A DNA stretch of 64,000 nucleotides from Candidatus Komeilibacteria bacterium (GTDB lineage Bacteria > Patescibacteriota > Patescibacteriia > UBA1558 > UBA10009). Each line of letters starts with the position of its first letter. The stretch's first letter is position 1. Shown here in pieces: positions 26,160 to 60,687 of the stretch. The DNA lies in assembly GCA_026396575.1 (NCBI GenBank), contig JAPLWM010000007.1, forward strand, positions 11,546-75,545, written 5' to 3'. The notes below the pieces were generated by a model. That model was not told the origin of the DNA. It saw only the letters and a program-made list of their open reading frames with translations, and did not search any database. The position numbers were made by a program, and so were the translations under genes.

Positions 26160-26267
26160 GCGAGTACGGGCAAGAAAAATTTATTCGCCCCCCGGACCTC
26201 GTTGGTGGTGCAAGGCGCATAATTATGCGCCTCTACAAGCTTCACAAATTTTTCTTGCCCTCGCGAC
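26160..26267. repeat. Intergenic nested inverted repeat: a 15-bp perfect outer stem enclosing an 18-bp perfect palindrome.
   Basis: gggcaagaaaaattt (26168-26182) is the exact reverse complement of aaatttttcttgccc (26246-26260). Inside lies ggcgcataattatgcgcc (26214-26231), a perfect palindrome. Confidence 0.6.
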
Positions 26268-26282
26268 TTAATATATAACAAT

Positions 26283-40595: not shown

Positions 40596-41834
40596 ATGAA
40601 GTTCGCAAAAAAATATTTTTGCCTCTTGGCGGCGCTAATTTTGGCCGGCGGTTTTTTGTTTAGCCCCGCTCGCGCTGCCAAATACGATTACGATTTGTCT
40701 TTAATCAGCGGCGATTTGGAGTTTTCCAAAGATGTTTTAATTTCCGGCGACACGGTTAGGATTTACGCCCGCATCCGCAATGTCGGCAACAAGGATATGA
40801 CTGGCTCGGTTTCGTTTTTTAGGGGGGCGCAAGCCATCGGCGATTCCCGCACTATTTCGGTTAGGCCCGGCGGCTATGGCGATGTTTTTGTGGATTTTAC
40901 CATTCCCCAAGATTCTTTTAATATTCAGGCAAAAATTCAGGCAACCGAGCCCGCGGACCAGAATCCCGCCAACGATAACGATCAAACCAAATTAATCGTG
41001 CCGGATCAGGATACCGACCACGACGGCATTGTGGACCGTTTGGATCCGGATATTGATAACGACGGCTTAACCAATGACCAGGAAAAAATTTTGGGCACCG
41101 ACCCTTATAAGGCCGATACCGACGGCGACGGAAGCAACGATAAAGTTGACGCTTTCCCGTTGGATCCCAAGGAATGGCTGGATACCGACGCTGACGGCAT
41201 TGGCAATAACGCCGATTTGGATGACGATAACGACGGTTTGTCTGATGTGCAGGAAAAAGCCCTGGGTACCGATCCTTTAAGAAAAGATACCGACGGCGAC
41301 GGCGTGATTGATTCGCTGGACGCTTTTCCTTTGGACCCGGCCCGCTCCAAAGTGGCGCCGGCGCGCGATATTTTTCAGCCCGTGCCAACTTCAAAACCTG
41401 AAACTCCCGTTAATGCCGCTGCCACGGCAAAAAATACCTCGGCGGCTTCAAGTACCGATCAGATCAATGCCGATGCGCAAGCCTTGGCGGCTTTAACCAA
41501 TTCCAATGAGGCGGCTAAAAAAATCGCCGATCAGCCCTTGGAAAAAATCGGCGCCGTGGTGGAAAAAGTTTCCGGCGCCTCGGGAGCGTTTTTCCGGCTG
41601 GATAATTTATTCCTTTGGCTGGCGCTGGGCATTGTTTTGGTGATCGGCGCCATCGTGCTGGTTATTTTAAAAATAAAGAAAGACCGCCAGTTACCGGTGG
41701 ATGCCATCGCCAAGGAAGCGCCGCGCCAGGCCTATGTCCATCAGCCCGCCGCTTTCAAGGAAGCCGGCCAATTATTAAGAAGATCGGCGCCCAATGTGAT
41801 AGATTTAAAGGATTTAATGAATAAAAAGAGATAA
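40596..41834 (+). CDS. Secreted, membrane-anchored surface protein with a CARDB-like N-domain and thrombospondin type-3-like calcium-binding repeats.
   Basis: Signal peptide ending SPARA. Repeated DxDxDGxxDxxD units (DTDHDGIVDRLDPDIDNDGLTNDQEK..DTDGDGSNDKVDAFPLDP, four times or more), an Ala/Ser-rich linker, and a C-terminal TM helix followed by a basic tail. Confidence 0.6.
   Translation: MKFAKKYFCLLAALILAGGFLFSPARAAKYDYDLSLISGDLEFSKDVLISGDTVRIYARIRNVGNKDMTGSVSFFRGAQAIGDSRTISVRPGGYGDVFVDFTIPQDSFNIQAKIQATEPADQNPANDNDQTKLIVPDQDTDHDGIVDRLDPDIDNDGLTNDQEKILGTDPYKADTDGDGSNDKVDAFPLDPKEWLDTDADGIGNNADLDDDNDGLSDVQEKALGTDPLRKDTDGDGVIDSLDAFPLDPARSKVAPARDIFQPVPTSKPETPVNAAATAKNTSAASSTDQINADAQALAALTNSNEAAKKIADQPLEKIGAVVEKVSGASGAFFRLDNLFLWLALGIVLVIGAIVLVILKIKKDRQLPVDAIAKEAPRQAYVHQPAAFKEAGQLLRRSAPNVIDLKDLMNKKR
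40990..41345 (+). repeat. Coding TSP3-like aspartate-rich tandem repeats.
   Basis: Recurrent GAY-rich codon runs encoding DxDxDG loops. They also generate spurious antisense ORFs. Confidence 0.6.
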
Positions 41835-41950
41835 AAAAGCCTTGCCGACCCCCTCTTAATCTCCCCCCTTTATAAGGGGGAGAAATACGAGGTAATAATT
41901 TCCCCTCCTTTATAAGGAGGGGCGCAGGGGTGGTCGGCAAGGCTTTTTTA
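41835..41950. terminator. Nested three-hairpin element, putative bidirectional intrinsic terminator (copy 1 of a repeat family).
   Basis: A6, then gccttgccgacc (41841-41852), which pairs perfectly with ggtcggcaaggc (41929-41940), then T6. The outer stem encloses two hairpins: ctccccc-ctttataa-gggggag and cccctcc-tttataa-ggagggg. Confidence 0.6.
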
Positions 41951-41970
41951 TTGTCAAAAACAACAATCGC

Positions 41971-43698
41971 GTGTATGATAATTTCATGAATAAATACAAA
42001 TGGCGTTTAAAAACGGCCCCGCCGGCCCAATTTTTTCAGCAGTTTCCCGAAATCAGCCCGGCCGTTTTAACCTTGCTTTACGACCGCGGTTTAACCGAAC
42101 AAGCGCAGATTGAAGAGTTTTTATCGCCGGATTATTCCCATGATATCTGCGACCCTTATTTATTCAGCCAAATGAAAACTGCGGTAGAGCGGATTTACCA
42201 AGCCAAGGTTAAAAATGAACCAGTGGTGATTTTCGGCGATTACGATGCCGACGGCGTTTGCGGTTCCGCTATTTTGGCCCGGGTTTTTAAGGAGCTCGGC
42301 CTTAATTTTACAACCTATCTGCCGGACCGCGAAAAAGAAGGTTATGGCTTGAATATTAAAGCGGTTGAAGAAATCGCGCGAGGCGGAGCCAAATTGATTA
42401 TTACCGTTGATTGCGGCATCAGTAATGCCGCCGAAGCGGCCCGAGTAAAAGAATTGGGTTTGGATCTGATTATTACCGATCATCATCATGTTCCCATAAA
42501 TTCCCCCGAAGCCTTGGCCATTATTCATCCTGCTTGGGATAAAAATTATCCTTTTAAGTTTTTGGCCGGCGGCGGCGTGGCTTTTAAACTGGCCAGCGGA
42601 TTGGTTAAGGATAGGCATTTTACTGCCGGGGAAAACCGCGAGGGCTTGGAAAAATGGCTCTTGGATTTGGCCGCCATCAGCACCGTGGCCGATATGGTGC
42701 CCTTAATCGGGGAAAACAGAACTTTAGTCAAATTCGGATTAGTAGTTTTGGCTAAAACCAAAAACTTAGGGCTTAAAAAATTAATGGAAGTGGCCGGCAT
42801 TAATCCCGAAAAATTGGATACCTTTTCTTTGGGCTATCAGGTGGCGCCGCGGATCAATGCCGCCGGCCGCATGGACCACGCCAATACCGCTTACGAGCTG
42901 CTGACCACCGATAACGTGGAAGAAGCCATTACTTTGGCCCATCAATTGAATAAGCGCAATACCGAGCGCCAGCAATTAACCGAAAAATTGGTTACCGAAG
43001 CCAAGGCCCAGTTAAAAAGTTTAGCGCCTTTGCCGCTTTTGCTAATTGTCGGCGGCGAGAATTGGAATCCGGGCATTATCGGCTTGGTCGCTTCCAAATT
43101 AACCCAGGATTTTGCCCGGCCGGCGCTGGTTTACAGTTTCGACGGGATCCGTTACGTGGCTTCGGGCCGTTCCATTAAGGAATTCAATTTAATCGAGGCC
43201 TTGGATAAATTGTCCGATTATTTCATCAAATACGGCGGCCATGCCGGCGCGGCCGGCTTCAGCATTAGCCCTGAAAAATTCGAGGAATTCAAGCAAAAAA
43301 TCATTGCTTTAGCCACAGAGCAACTTACCGGCCGGGAATTGATTCCCACTTTAACCATTGACCAGGAATTAACTTTGGCCCAGGTGGATTGGCCGACAGT
43401 GAACGCTTTGGAACAGTTCAGCCCTTACGGCGAAGGCAATTTAAAGCCCCGCTTTTTAATTAAGGATTTAACGGTGGTGCTGGCCGAAACAGTGGGGGAA
43501 ACCGGCAGCCACCTGCGTTTAATGGTTAAACAGGGGCTTTTAACCAGGAAAATAATTTGTTTCGGCTTTGGCGAACTTTGCCCGCTGCTTGCGCCGGGCC
43601 AAAAAATTGACGCGGTTTGCGAGCTGGGCGTTAACCAGTGGAACGGCAATCAGGAATTGCAGCTTTCCTTAATCGATTTAAAAGGCCATGAAGAATAA
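41971..43698 (+). CDS. recJ: Single-stranded-DNA-specific exonuclease RecJ.
   Basis: DHH-family motifs VVIFGDYDADGVCGSAIL, ITVDCG and ITDHHH, plus a DHHA1 block GGHAGAAGF. Confidence 0.85.
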   Translation: MYDNFMNKYKWRLKTAPPAQFFQQFPEISPAVLTLLYDRGLTEQAQIEEFLSPDYSHDICDPYLFSQMKTAVERIYQAKVKNEPVVIFGDYDADGVCGSAILARVFKELGLNFTTYLPDREKEGYGLNIKAVEEIARGGAKLIITVDCGISNAAEAARVKELGLDLIITDHHHVPINSPEALAIIHPAWDKNYPFKFLAGGGVAFKLASGLVKDRHFTAGENREGLEKWLLDLAAISTVADMVPLIGENRTLVKFGLVVLAKTKNLGLKKLMEVAGINPEKLDTFSLGYQVAPRINAAGRMDHANTAYELLTTDNVEEAITLAHQLNKRNTERQQLTEKLVTEAKAQLKSLAPLPLLLIVGGENWNPGIIGLVASKLTQDFARPALVYSFDGIRYVASGRSIKEFNLIEALDKLSDYFIKYGGHAGAAGFSISPEKFEEFKQKIIALATEQLTGRELIPTLTIDQELTLAQVDWPTVNALEQFSPYGEGNLKPRFLIKDLTVVLAETVGETGSHLRLMVKQGLLTRKIICFGFGELCPLLAPGQKIDAVCELGVNQWNGNQELQLSLIDLKGHEE

Positions 43699-57130: not shown

Positions 57131-57166
57131 AAAAAACAGCCAATTTATCATTGGTTGTTTTTTTAC
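57131..57166 (+). terminator. Intrinsic terminator downstream of the EEP gene.
   Basis: acagccaa-tttatca-ttggttgt (8-bp stem with one G-U pair) followed by T7. Confidence 0.55.
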
Positions 57167-57261
57167 CCATTCAAATCAATAAGCCGAATTTTGTCTCCCT
57201 GCACCACTCACTTCGTTCGGGTGCAGGACAAGCTAAATTTTTAGATAGGTATTAAATACTA

Positions 57262-57304
57262 AAATGAGCCTGCCCTGAACTCGAGCAAAGCGAGTAGTTC
57301 AGGG
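57262..57304 (-). terminator. Hairpin terminator downstream (on the minus strand) of RNase P RNA.
   Basis: ccctgaact / agttcaggg is a 9-bp stem at 57273-57281 and 57296-57304. On the minus strand a U-rich tract (CAUUUUAGUAUUU) follows. Confidence 0.45.
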
Positions 57305-57658
57305 GGATGATCATCTATCTAGATCCGCAAATTGCTCTGCGGATTCATGCCTTCAACCCGCCCTGTACCGTATGGTTCAGGGCCTACTTGAAGTTGCACC
57401 GGATAGAGTTTACCTCTTTTCCCTTGTCGCCAAGGGAACGGATCCGCTTATTGGCGTATCTTTTCACCTGCAATTCACGACCGGTATACCCATGCCATGA
57501 ATAAGAATACTTTCTGTTGCACTTGTCCTGTTGCCTAAATTACTTTAGGCAACGGTTGGCGTTACCAATTATCCTCCGTAAAGGTACGGAAACCTTGGTG
57601 TTCGGACTTTCCTCTCCGCCGAAGCCCTATAAGGGCGAAGGTGGAGCGATCATCTAGA
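57305..57658 (-). ncRNA. rnpB: RNase P RNA, bacterial type A.
   Basis: The minus-strand transcript contains, in the correct order, GGCGGAGAGGAAAGTCCGAACACCAAGG (P4 5' strand), GGTAACGCC, AGTGCAACAGAAAG, GGTGAAAAG...AAGCGG and GGTAAACTC, and a 3' end CAGAGCAATTTGCGGATCTAGATAGATGATCATCC whose GATCATC pairs with the 5' GATGATC to form P1. Length is about 355 nt. Confidence 0.8.
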
Positions 57659-57724
57659 TTTGAATGAGCAAAAATAGGATAACATAAAAGAAGCATAAAG
57701 TCAAGTTTTGTTTTTCTAACAAAT

Positions 57725-60392: not shown

Positions 60393-60512
60393 ATGCACTG
60401 CGCCAAATGCCAAATGCCTCTGGAAGACAATAATGCCTGCTCCTGCAACGAAATTTTATGCCAATATTGCTGCGAATGCGACGAGGGTTGCAGCTGCGGT
60501 TGCAAGGGCTAA
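60393..60512 (+). CDS. Unannotated 39-codon cysteine-rich peptide (metallothionein-like).
   Basis: ATG at 60393 to TAA at 60510-60512 encodes MHCAKCQMPLEDNNACSCNEILCQYCCECDEGCSCGCKG. It has 11 Cys in 39 aa, arranged as CxxC, CSC, CC, CEC, CSC and CGC. It falls below the 60-aa cutoff of the ORF track. Confidence 0.45.
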   Translation: MHCAKCQMPLEDNNACSCNEILCQYCCECDEGCSCGCKG

Positions 60513-60529
60513 TAATAAATGATGTTGAA

Positions 60530-60648
60530 GAAAAGGTCTTGCAAACTTTTACCCCCACCCAACCTCCCCCTAATCTAGGGGGAGGAGAATATTTCCCCCT
60601 CCTAGATTAGGAGGGGTTAGGGGAGGTAAGTTGGCAAGGCTTTTTCAT
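60530..60648. terminator. Nested three-hairpin element, copy 2 of the family seen at 41835-41950.
   Basis: A4, then ggtcttgcaaactt, which pairs imperfectly with aagttggcaaggc, then T5. The outer stem encloses cctccccc-taatcta-gggggagg and cccctcc-tagatta-ggagggg. Confidence 0.55.
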
Positions 60649-60687
60649 TTTTGCCAATTGCGGCGATTTTCTTTATAATAGGCGTAT

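Follow-up and report, generated by a model that had tools for sequence, protein, structure and literature searches.

Two intergenic palindromes in a Komeilibacteria genome carry inverted triplex-motif doublets of a widespread bacterial repeat associated with DUF559 endonuclease genes

The BoxC, PIT and TMECO repeats, familiar since the 1990s, occur abundantly in E. coli, cyanobacteria and pathogens; BoxC and PIT were reportedly described by Bachellier in the 1990s and by Hoyne & Maher in 2000. To our knowledge, no origin, mobility mechanism or function of the repeats has gained acceptance. Each unit consists of a pyrimidine arm, a loop, a purine arm, a linker of 3 nt (often TTA) and a further purine segment, the mirror image of the purine arm, in which A or T stands opposite the A. 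The units are G/C-rich, intergenic and multi-copy, often stand as inverted pairs of two unlike types, and are less conserved in their loops. All of these features recur in the repeat described here. Single-stranded TMECO DNA was found to form a triplex in vitro, by CD and NMR of E. coli oligonucleotides, and no triplex was detected in vivo by DMS footprinting (PMC4666352). According to the same paper, TMECO loci are more variable among E. coli strains, PIT elements showed neither promoter nor terminator activity in E. coli in earlier work, and the authors (Holder et al. 2015) "never found" mobility genes near TMECO (PMC4666352). The present repeat differs in its hosts, which are Patescibacteria and many other phyla, in the terminator-like stem that encloses the doublets of the window, and in an association with DUF559 genes that is not mentioned in PMC4666352.

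The window analyzed was a 64-kb stretch of DNA from a Candidatus Komeilibacteria bacterium. Two intergenic palindromes of approximately 115 bp, L1 (41833-41949) and L2 (60531-60645), are present as described in the initial annotation, which had placed them at 41835-41950 and 60530-60648, within 1-3 nt of these ends; no third copy was found in the window. In each, an A-tract and a T-tract bound a GC outer stem that encloses two C/G hairpins; the parts are listed in Table 1. L1 lies between a TSP3_bac protein gene, the surface-protein gene of the initial annotation, and the RecJ gene, while L2 is preceded by a 39-aa Cys-rich putative ORF, present as an open reading frame. The perfect 12-bp outer stem flanked by A6 and T6 that had been reported for L1 was confirmed, and together with the tracts it makes a perfect 20-bp run. 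For L2, which was said to have the same architecture, the tracts, the related outer arms and the two hairpins are there, but the arms, although homologous to those of L1, pair imperfectly (two G.U pairs and one A.G mismatch), and the MFE structure is one long hairpin and not three. The L1 and L2 outer stems differ by one compensatory change (G-C to A-T). The loops of L1 and L2 differ from each other, and the two loops of L2 are exact reverse complements, as had been noted. No target-site duplication was seen at either copy. When folded as RNA and compared with shuffled controls, both loci were far more stable, with an MFE of -72.9 (z -8.45) for L1 and -70.5 (z -6.13) for L2, and 0 of 200 shuffles equally stable in each case.

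Table 1. Parts of the palindromes L1 and L2 and adjoining promoter-like sites (positions in the window)
Feature	Position	Strand	Remarks
L1 A-tract, A6	41833-41838	.	overlaps the TAA stop (41832-34) of the TSP3_bac gene; pairs with the T-tract
L1 outer stem, 5' arm, GCCTTGCCGACC	41839-41850	.	perfect pairing with the 3' arm
L1 left triplex-motif unit	41849-41883		class IV on + strand, class II on - strand
L1 left unit, Y* CCCCCTCT	41849-56		
L1 left unit, linker TAA	41857-59		
L1 left unit, Y TCTCCCCC	41860-67		
L1 left unit, loop CTTTATAA	41868-75		
L1 left unit, R GGGGGAGA	41876-83		
L1 spacer between units	41884-41901	.	
L1 right triplex-motif unit	41902-41933		class II on + strand
L1 right unit, Y CCCCTCC	41902-08		
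L1 right unit, loop TTTATAA	41909-15		
L1 right unit, R GGAGGGG	41916-22		
L1 right unit, linker CGCA	41923-26		
L1 right unit, R* GGGGTGG	41927-33		
L1 outer stem, 3' arm, GGTCGGCAAGGC	41932-41943	.	
L1 T-tract, T6	41944-41949	+	U-tract of putative intrinsic terminator
Promoter-like site TTGTCA-17-TATGAT	41951-41979	+	for recJ, ATG 41986; conserved in relatives
L2 A-tract, A4	60531-60534	.	
L2 outer stem, 5' arm, GGTCTTGCAAACTT	60535-60548	.	homologous to the L1 arm
L2 left triplex-motif unit	60552-60585		
L2 left unit, Y* CCCCCACC	60552-59		
L2 left unit, linker CAA	60560-62		
L2 left unit, Y CCTCCCCC	60563-70		
L2 left unit, loop TAATCTA	60571-77		
L2 left unit, R GGGGGAGG	60578-85		
L2 spacer between units	60586-60595	.	
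L2 right triplex-motif unit	60596-60626		
L2 right unit, Y CCCCTCC	60596-602		
L2 right unit, loop TAGATTA	60603-09		
L2 right unit, R GGAGGGG	60610-16		
L2 right unit, linker TTA	60617-19		
L2 right unit, R* GGGGAGG	60620-26		
L2 outer stem, 3' arm, AAGTTGGCAAGGC	60628-60640	.	
L2 T-tract, T5	60641-60645	+	
Promoter-like site TTGCCA-17-TATAAT	60651-60679	+	11/12 matches; for the glycosyltransferase gene, ATG 60688

A point missed in the initial annotation is that a third segment accompanies every hairpin of the window, either as the mirror of the purine arm or, on the other strand, as the complement of this mirror, as in CCCCTCC-loop-GGAGGGG-TTA-GGGGAGG. The window holds four perfect hairpins of 7-8 bp and all four units obey this rule: Y* of the L1 left unit is the exact mirror of Y, R* of the L2 right unit is the exact mirror of R, and R* of the L1 right unit is the mirror of R with the A changed to T, which gives a T.A-T triple. 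By chance, 0.007 G/C-rich hairpin-plus-mirror units would be expected in the window (300 dinucleotide shuffles), compared with the four observed. Across 118 loci from a wider family scan, in which the hairpins were selected as perfect, the purine arm's mirror was the nearer match for 303 of 356 third segments (an exact one for 239), and a direct copy was the nearer match for 36. The base that mirrors the A was A in 239 cases, T in 42, G in 3 and C in 1; this preference for A or T (281 of 285) fits the purine-motif triplex rule exactly. The mirror relation moves with the hairpin type over six types, the linker is mostly 3 nt and often TTA, the same as in the E. coli TMECO, and inverted pairs of unlike types occur here as they do in E. 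coli.

Judged by its sequence, the core of L1 and L2 is the G/C-rich intrastrand triplex motif of the BoxC/PIT/TMECO kind, arranged as inverted pairs. The window units have the hairpin, the mirrored third segment and the multi-copy, intergenic, inverted pairing of the class II purine motif. Their stems did not match the E. coli TMECO consensus (CCCTCNCCC-N3-6-GGGNGAGGG-N3-GGGNGAGGG): E. coli stems are 9-10 nt long (CCCTCNCCC), whereas those of the window are 7-8 nt with one T/A (CCCCTCC, CTCCCCC), and CCCCTCC and (T)CTCCCCC represent a subfamily other than TMECO. The repeat itself has thus been described before, and L1 and L2 are gene-less copies of a known and very widespread bacterial repeat. 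The R-linker-R* or Y*-linker-Y part is a homopurine-homopyrimidine mirror repeat like those of H-DNA. Owing to the extra complementary arm, however, a single strand suffices for the triplex, and the other half of the duplex is not left unpaired. A G-quadruplex or i-motif reading was rejected, since there are only three G-tracts per strand and the mirrored A/T position would be left unexplained, and so was a riboswitch-like alternative pairing, since the third segment mirrors the purine arm and does not repeat it.

The initial annotation had also raised the possibility of a structured RNA. Very stable predicted folds, conserved stems with varying loops, and a pyrimidine-motif (class IV) half that could in principle form an RNA triplex would all be compatible with a non-coding or cis-regulatory RNA family in which a three-way junction acts at the RNA level. 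However, Rfam searches at the gathering score and at a permissive E-value returned only meaningless miRNA-like hairpin matches far below threshold, the folding energies were equal on both strands, and the elements occur in both orientations and in two different doublet arrangements. The informative covariation is of the mirror type and not Watson-Crick, which fits the DNA triplex or H-DNA rule, and the flanking Y*/R* segments carry a fixed mismatch across the family, so that there is no conserved outer RNA helix. Considering also that purine-motif triplexes do not form in RNA (PMC4666352), we regard an RNA family as very unlikely.

The inverted doublet is far from confined to this organism. 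More than 118 matches to the two-hairpin pattern were found across many phyla, with conserved stems and variable loops, so that the REP/MITE-like family foreseen by the initial annotation is real and its further copies exist elsewhere, although only two lie within the 64 kb. The 118 genome-contig loci listed are a lower bound, and the Komeilibacteria source genome is not among the matches listed. Hosts include Patescibacteria, Gamma- and Alphaproteobacteria, Bacteroidota, Ignavibacteria, Poribacteria, Myxococcota, Actinomycetota and others; viral contigs scanned with the two-hairpin pattern gave 0 matches. The doublets are depleted inside ORFs (37% versus 80% for random positions).

Among the matches listed, a single protein family was recurrent near the doublets, namely DUF559 (12 loci, Pfam E value approximately 1e-31), and in all 12 of these repeat-ascertained loci the doublets flank a Vsr-like endonuclease gene of approximately 120 aa. 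All 12 genes have perfect C/G hairpins within 150 nt, on both sides in nine of them and mostly immediately adjacent; in one exception (L044) the units lie approximately 130-160 nt from the gene. The typical layout is a unit, 8-25 nt, the ATG, the stop codon, which often forms the linker, and another unit. The same flanking was seen in six to seven of eight homologous loci that were picked only on protein similarity and contig extent. Solo doublets share loop sequences with the units beside the DUF559 gene of their own genome, as in Andersenbacteria (L071 versus L004, L009, L017 and L028). No paper linking a DUF559 nuclease to the triplex-motif repeat was found in a literature search; this link is new here, and the motif family itself is known. 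A DUF559 gene is absent from the 64-kb window and the neighbouring contigs, and since there is none in the window, L1 and L2 can only be solo members.

This arrangement resembles that of REPINs and RAYTs, in which short palindromic units are dispersed as inverted doublets in intergenic DNA, one small nuclease gene is itself flanked by units, and repeat abundance tracks the presence of the gene. The RAYT is an HUH Y1 transposase, whereas the candidate here is the DUF559 protein, predicted to be of the Vsr-like PD-(D/E)XK type, and the units carry a triplex-type third segment and are similar in sequence across phyla. An actual REP/REPIN-RAYT system, or a classical transposase-derived MITE, could account for dispersed intergenic inverted doublets and for the longer terminal inverted repeats of the Odoribacter version. 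We consider it extremely unlikely, because no Y1 or other transposase and no integrase was recurrent near the elements among the matches listed, there is neither a GTAG/CGTC tag nor a target-site duplication, and the unit sequence is conserved across phyla, unlike that of the species-specific REPs.

Three of the DUF559 loci (L029, L106 and L126) have doublet-gene-doublet direct repeats, and L126 also has a second gene (ORF6N), placed after the same doublet and a 50-nt leader. Such loci are what one might expect of an integron-like cassette system in which gene and doublet travel together, the doublet is an att-like recombination site, and solo doublets are empty sites. We think this improbable, given that no recombinase was associated among the matches listed, that R'/R'' core sites are lacking, and that there is a single recurrent cargo family, with arrays of at most two to three units. 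Integron attC sites in the strict sense were rejected, there being no RYYYAAC ... GTTRRRY sites, no IntI integrase cluster and no cassette arrays.

The E. coli DUF559 gene, ycjD, ends in a degenerate BoxC hairpin, and TMECO #9 follows on the same strand, 168 nt further downstream. Sixty genomes, spread over the 5426 of E. coli, were compared; in this comparison, which is confounded by phylogeny, chromosomes with ycjD had 15-32 TM-like places (median 21, n=37), while those without it had 2-23 (median 8, n=23; MWU p=2e-9). O157:H7 lacks ycjD, yet has kept approximately 15 copies.

DUF559 is a very large family, and we know of no biochemical activity of any of its proteins on such DNA, and of no substrate. 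This would suit a protein-independent non-B-DNA element that causes local instability or polymerase pausing (Holder et al.) and lies near DUF559 genes incidentally, for example in unstable regions; the published in vitro triplex and the variable TMECO loci of E. coli strains point the same way (PMC4666352). Against this, the adjacency to DUF559 is precise, architecture-specific and recurrent across phyla and in the protein-ascertained loci, the solo doublets of Andersenbacteria share their loops with the DUF559-flanking units of the same genome, and copy number tracks ycjD in E. coli. We therefore judge an element independent of any protein to be unlikely.

The outer stem of L1 and L2 is a separate matter. 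The promoter-like sites begin 2 nt (L1) and 6 nt (L2) after the T-tracts, and the upstream stop codon abuts the L1 A-tract. In relatives whose RecJ is 76%, 66% and 64% identical, the gene order is unchanged and the same spot is occupied by AGGGT-loop-ACCCT and a T-tract, followed by the conserved TTGTCA box, with no triplex motif; the T-tract of L1 aligns with those of these small terminators. Since the composite takes the site of the relatives' small terminator and a conserved promoter directly follows, it probably terminates transcription. As in intrinsic terminators, a GC stem lies downstream of a stop codon, between an A-tract and an immediately adjoining U-tract, with an orthologous terminator in relatives; intrinsic terminators, however, have compact hairpins with loops of about 3-8 nt, whereas the putative terminators of L1 and L2 would close a structured insert of approximately 80 nt, and a terminator consensus scan called neither of them. 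From these features of the sequence, a terminator role for the composite is plausible.

Two plain bidirectional intrinsic terminators, with the inner hairpins as incidental filler rich in GC and without a mobile or protein-linked family, would explain the position between stop codon and promoter, the A and T tracts on either side of the GC stem, and the terminators at the same site in relatives. We find this quite unlikely, since the inner part matches, unit by unit and with its mirror rule, a repeat of more than 118 copies in unrelated phyla, four units are present against the 0.007 expected by chance, and the relatives manage with a 5-bp hairpin and without triplex units.

Three nested hairpins, proposed initially as the architecture of the whole family, hold for these two loci as a local composite and not family-wide: outer stems around doublets are not general, and only L1 and a few others exceed the control. 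No solo copies of the outer stem were found in the 64-kb window, and a search of JGI metagenomes with the right end of the composite (GGAGGGG...GTYGGCAAGGCTTTT) gave no further copies, only five chance matches inside coding DNA. The outer stem with its A/T tracts seems specific to this Komeilibacteria genome, and the case for the composite moving as a unit is based on two copies, since no others were found.

We consider it likely that a triplex-motif core, a DUF559-linked doublet family and a composite acting as a terminator together explain L1 and L2. Each locus is a composite DNA palindrome, built of units in which a pyrimidine arm, a loop, a purine arm and a linker of approximately 3 nt are followed by a third purine segment mirroring the purine arm. 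On single-stranded DNA this segment would lie antiparallel on the purine arm of the hairpin and form G.G-C, A.A-T or T.A-T triples, and the complementary strand would form the pyrimidine version of the triplex. The doublets, observed beside Vsr-like PD-(D/E)XK DUF559 genes in many phyla, would be the terminal or flanking repeats of these genes, by a mechanism that we infer, and the copies in the window would be "solo", non-autonomous members, comparable to REPINs or solo LTRs. A DUF559 nuclease encoded at another place in the genome may have spread or maintained them in trans; alternatively, they may have arisen by loss of the gene through recombination between flanking doublets. In this Komeilibacteria genome the doublet appears to be carried inside an extra GC stem of 12-18 bp with A and T tracts. 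Between the TSP3 gene and the recJ promoter, this composite may have replaced a small intrinsic terminator of the ordinary kind, and the second copy is placed before the glycosyltransferase promoter. The outer stem and U-tract most likely terminate transcription, possibly in both directions, and the triplex-motif doublet would ride in the loop.

More tentatively, and as a possibility that falls somewhat short of probable, we suggest that the enzymatic partners so far missing for the BoxC/PIT/triplex-motif repeats are YcjD-type DUF559 nucleases. In this view a DUF559 gene preceded by a class II unit and followed by a class IV unit would be the autonomous form. Its solo or non-autonomous derivatives would be the dispersed inverted doublets, among them the two described here and the 20-30 TMECOs that E. 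coli carries. Recognition by the nuclease would be of the folded hairpin, the triplex or a mismatched cruciform, in a symbiosis like that of REPINs and RAYTs with a different nuclease fold and non-B DNA, and some lineages may then have co-opted copies as terminators. The Vsr endonuclease and the homing endonuclease I-Bth0305I belong to the same PD-(D/E)XK clade as DUF559 (PMC3424549, PMC3239194); they have the nuclease fold in common with it and offer precedents for mismatch-directed nicking and for homing, although the DUF559 genes of approximately 120 aa are not in an intron or intein. It is interesting to speculate that DUF559 is linked to the T.G and C.A mismatches predicted in the doublet cruciform.

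In this Komeilibacteria genome, L1 and L2 mark two transcription-unit boundaries. Micro-ORFs of the 'PLLxKEGxGEV' type are many and spurious, and the repeat may account for them and for assembly breaks in metagenomes, which would be of use in annotation. For the family as a whole, these data extend the triplex motif to Patescibacteria and at least a dozen other phyla, and add that its doublets bracket a small nuclease gene of unknown function, E. coli ycjD included, and that copy number follows the presence of a DUF559 gene. Bracketing of DUF559 genes may explain how a long-orphan repeat family has been maintained. The question is directly testable in E. coli, and the answer would give a first function to DUF559.

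Both intergenic elements of the window (L1 and L2, composite palindromes of about 115 bp) were read through and their segments located. The nested architecture described in the initial annotation was present at both, with ends within a few bases of those first given, and each element sits between co-directional genes. A 20-bp perfect run in L1 consists of the 12-bp outer stem together with the A and T tracts. The outer stems are related, as had been proposed: the L2 arms are evident homologues of the L1 arms, with one position altered on both sides (G-C to A-T), yet they pair imperfectly, with two G.U pairs and a single A.G mismatch. Both loci were far more stable than dinucleotide shuffles (z -8.45 for L1 and -6.13 for L2; 0/200 shuffles as stable), which bears out the folding comparison suggested earlier. 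Since the two loops of L2 are exact reverse complements, its minimum-energy fold is a single long hairpin.

Elements, neighboring features and related sites (window positions unless another locus or genome is named)
Feature	Position	Description
L1	41833-41949	A6 overlapping TAA stop of upstream gene, outer stem, two perfect C/G hairpins, T6
L1 outer stem		perfect 12 bp; arms GCCTTGCCGACC / GGTCGGCAAGGC
L1 right unit	41902-33	CCCCTCC-TTTATAA-GGAGGGG-CGCA-GGGGTGG
L1 neighbors		TSP3_bac protein gene before, recJ after
Promoter site after L1	41951-79	sigma-70-like, TTGTCA-17-TATGAT, almost directly behind element
L2	60531-60645	plan as in L1
L2 right unit	60596-626	CCCCTCC-TAGATTA-GGAGGGG-TTA-GGGGAGG
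L2 neighbors		39-aa Cys-rich ORF before, glycosyltransferase gene after
Promoter site after L2	60651-79	sigma-70-like, TTGCCA-17-TATAAT, 11/12 matches, almost directly behind element
Left-hand units, L1 and L2		opposite strand; mirrored segment-linker-arm CCCCCTCT-TAA-TCTCCCCC; CCCCCACC-CAA-CCTCCCCC
39-aa candidate ORF	60393-60512	12 Cys (MHCAKCQMPLEDNNACSCNEILCQYCCECDEGCSCGCKG), just upstream of L2
Further nested intergenic palindrome	26160-26275	long outer stem GGGCAAGAAAAATTT ... AAATTTTTCTTGCCC, perfect hairpin GGCGCATAATTATGCGCC inside; no sequence kinship with triplex-motif elements
Bacterial RNase P class A RNA	57164-57666 (- strand)	503 nt against a 367-position model, hence large insertions
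TSP3-recJ site, one relative	L140 2855-2910	terminator stem AAAAGGGTCA / TGACCCTTTT round 18-nt inner hairpin
Cassette-like layout	L126 1340-2000	doublet and about 50-nt leader before DUF559 gene, again before next gene (ORF6N-domain protein)
TMECO #9	K-12 1,351,239-1,351,204	168 nt downstream of ycjD, same strand (Holder Table 1, PMC4666352)
Duplicated ycjD 3' coding-end fragment	L119 6230-6420 = K-12 1,351,230-1,351,420	GAGACGGTGCTGGAGAATATTC..., between ycjD and TMECO #9

A third segment, overlooked in the initial annotation, adjoins every hairpin of the window. On the relevant strand each unit runs pyrimidine arm, loop, purine arm, a linker of 3-5 nt, and a purine segment that mirrors the purine arm (class II; the pyrimidine version on the opposite strand is class IV). 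Four such G/C-rich units were observed in the window against 0.007 expected from 300 shuffles. Bacteria and archaea, at one genome per species, were then scanned for the two hairpins only, giving at least 118 stretches; third segments were not demanded by this pattern, yet were present in the matches. Among hairpin sides with a G-rich neighbor in the matches listed, the third segment was nearer a mirror of the purine arm in 303 of 356 (239 exact) and nearer a direct copy in 36, and in the matches listed the mirror relation tracks hairpin type across six types. Where the purine arm has its single A, the mirrored position of the third segment carries A in 239 cases, T in 42, G in 3 and C in 1 (matches listed), as an antiparallel purine-motif triplex prescribes (G.G-C, A.A-T or T.A-T). 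Alternative Watson-Crick pairing by the third segment would instead need a repeat of the purine arm, and a mirror was found. The proposal of a structured RNA fares poorly: as RNA, neither strand of the window elements folds better than the other, an Rfam search with them gave no family match, and the covariation is of the mirror type. At L034, L044, L047, L048, L051, L073, L129, L130 and L132, from Ignavibacteria and some other hosts, an additional small hairpin (15-45 nt) sits in the linker that separates purine arm and mirrored segment; the third segment is displaced but still kept.

This structure is that of a known repeat, the E. coli BoxC. It was found a second time as the PIT element (Hoyne and Maher 2000), and Holder et al. 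(2015, PMC4666352) later examined it under the name TMECO. TMECO is an intrastrand triplex of the class II purine-motif kind, CCCTCTCCC-TTGA-GGGAGAGGG-TTA-GGGTGAGGG, with 23 copies in MG1655, all intergenic, and five inverted pairs that always join two unlike types (PMC4666352). For these E. coli relatives of the window units, triplex formation in vitro is documented in the literature, by CD and NMR on the single strand, while protection in vivo was not seen (PMC4666352). The same report found no transposase or integrase near TMECO, relates that earlier work detected no promoter or terminator activity of PIT elements, proposes a role in genomic instability, and notes numerous G/C-rich motifs in cyanobacteria and pathogens (PMC4666352). 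The window units have the architecture of TMECO, a linker of the TTA type, its A/T rule and its pairing of unlike types, but do not match its consensus; they are thus new members of the same kind in a new host group, and L1 and L2 are local composites of it with a terminator stem.

Further copies had been predicted; the window contains only L1 and L2, and it is the at least 118 stretches elsewhere that make the REP/MITE-like reading reasonable. Hosts among the matches listed include many Patescibacteria, Gamma- and Alphaproteobacteria, Odoribacter, Prevotella, Ignavibacteria, Chlorobiota, Poribacteria, Myxococcota, Planctomycetes, Chloroflexi, Actinomycetota, Acidobacteriota and Omnitrophica, and single genomes often contribute several copies. 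Inverted pairs of units (doublets) were head to head in 83 cases and tail to tail in 27 among the matches listed. Their loops were exact reverse complements in 41/112 and within one mismatch in 78/112 (controls 23%). The two hairpins of a doublet are nearly always of unlike type, so that a cruciform across it would hold fixed T.G and C.A mispairs. Unlike types may serve simply to avoid a perfect palindrome; it is tempting to speculate that a Vsr-like enzyme recognizes the mispairs. 'Bacterium SO_2017_GW3_31' and one Peribacteraceae MAG carry tail-to-tail doublets centered on an AGATC...GATCT palindrome (L022, L023, L056, L061, L067, L105, L108); a conserved G-rich sequence of ~45 nt ending GTAGCGGTC precedes them, indicating a longer repeated element there. 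At L055 a DUF559 gene sits exactly within this central palindrome.

When all ORFs of the at least 118 loci were clustered, only one family recurred beside the repeats, a protein of ~120 aa at 12 loci. It belongs to Pfam DUF559 (E about 1e-31; MTES_1575 matches were weaker), its nearest solved structure is 3HRL, an 'endonuclease-like protein', and its clade also includes Vsr and a homing endonuclease (PMC3424549, PMC3239194). Perfect C/G hairpins lay within 150 nt of the gene in 12/12 loci and on both sides in nine (among the matches listed); the units abut the gene in most, those of L044 being about 130-160 nt off. Read in the direction of the gene, the order is a class II unit (hairpin, then its mirrored segment of purines), a gap of 8-25 nt, ATG ... 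stop, and a class IV unit (mirrored segment of pyrimidines, then hairpin), the stop codon often doubling as linker. At L029, L106 and L126 an entire doublet stands on either side as a direct repeat. Because these 12 loci were ascertained by the repeat, eight homologues were picked solely by protein similarity and length of contig, and 6-7 of the eight were flanked likewise, with L133, from a proteobacterium, a textbook case. The contigs bearing close homologues are mostly very short (often <2 kb), which would be expected if gene and repeats break metagenome assemblies. No paper joining this nuclease to the repeat was found in the literature searched, an absence that is no proof of novelty.

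In E. coli K-12, a degenerate BoxC hairpin forms the end of ycjD (annotated DUF559), and the duplicated 3' fragment beyond it suggests past recombination at the repeat. A search of 5426 complete E. coli genomes with ycjD plus the downstream TMECO found the gene in 3377. In 60 evenly spread chromosomes, repeat places numbered 15-32 (median 21) with ycjD versus 2-23 (median 8) without it (Mann-Whitney p = 2e-9), a link that is confounded by phylogeny; O157:H7 is without ycjD and keeps about 15 copies. Published TMECO counts per strain (PMC4666352), sorted here by phylogroup, are 19-30 for most A/B1/C strains (UMNK88 13), 1-2 for B2 strains and 6-15 for D/E/F strains. The gene ycjD occurs in phylogroups A, B1 and C, with eefRABCD in its place in the others (PMC12817139).

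The window comes from a Candidatus Komeilibacteria MAG, as a 100% identical RecJ shows. No DUF559 gene was found in the window or in the neighboring contigs examined. Whichever strand is read, the window elements consist of a class IV unit, a spacer and a class II unit in that order (head to head), the arrangement that flanks DUF559 genes as direct repeats, and with no such gene present they are therefore solo doublets. An outer stem with A/T tracts does not characterize the family: of 121 doublets, flanking complementarity exceeded the control in L1 and just a few more, the window has no solo outer stem, and a metagenome scan for the composite gave chance matches only. A lineage-specific shell round the core does exist beyond this genome, in the cultured Bacteroidota isolate Odoribacter sp. 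AF15-53 (L003, L015, L078, L111, L118), where inverted repeats of ~35 bp (TGTC.GAAAAGTC...) form the ends of a longer element centered on the doublet.

The gene order PfkB, TSP3, RecJ, RNase H is kept in three relatives with RecJ at 76%, 66% and 64% identity, none of which has a triplex motif at the TSP3-recJ site. In two, the stretch from the TSP3 stop to a conserved TTGTCA box contains a simple small terminator (AGGGT-loop-ACCCT, then a T-tract); the L1 composite, at this terminator position, is thus a lineage-specific replacement. The outer arms common to L1 and L2 imply that the composite was copied whole at least once, and the inner hairpin of the remaining relative that terminator-loop inserts recur in the lineage with differing cargo. 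Outer stem and U-tract would then probably terminate transcription at the window elements, as first suggested; the stop codon, T-tract, promoter and relatives' terminator make this reasonable, whereas the loop of about 80 nt and the lack of termination by PIT elements alone in E. coli argue against it.

A DUF559 nuclease may act on the folded units, spreading or maintaining them; alternatively, solo doublets could be remnants left by recombination between flanking doublets. The consistent bracketing of DUF559 genes by the repeat, although outside the window, is the most interesting product of this analysis and offers a testable answer to the old question of this repeat.
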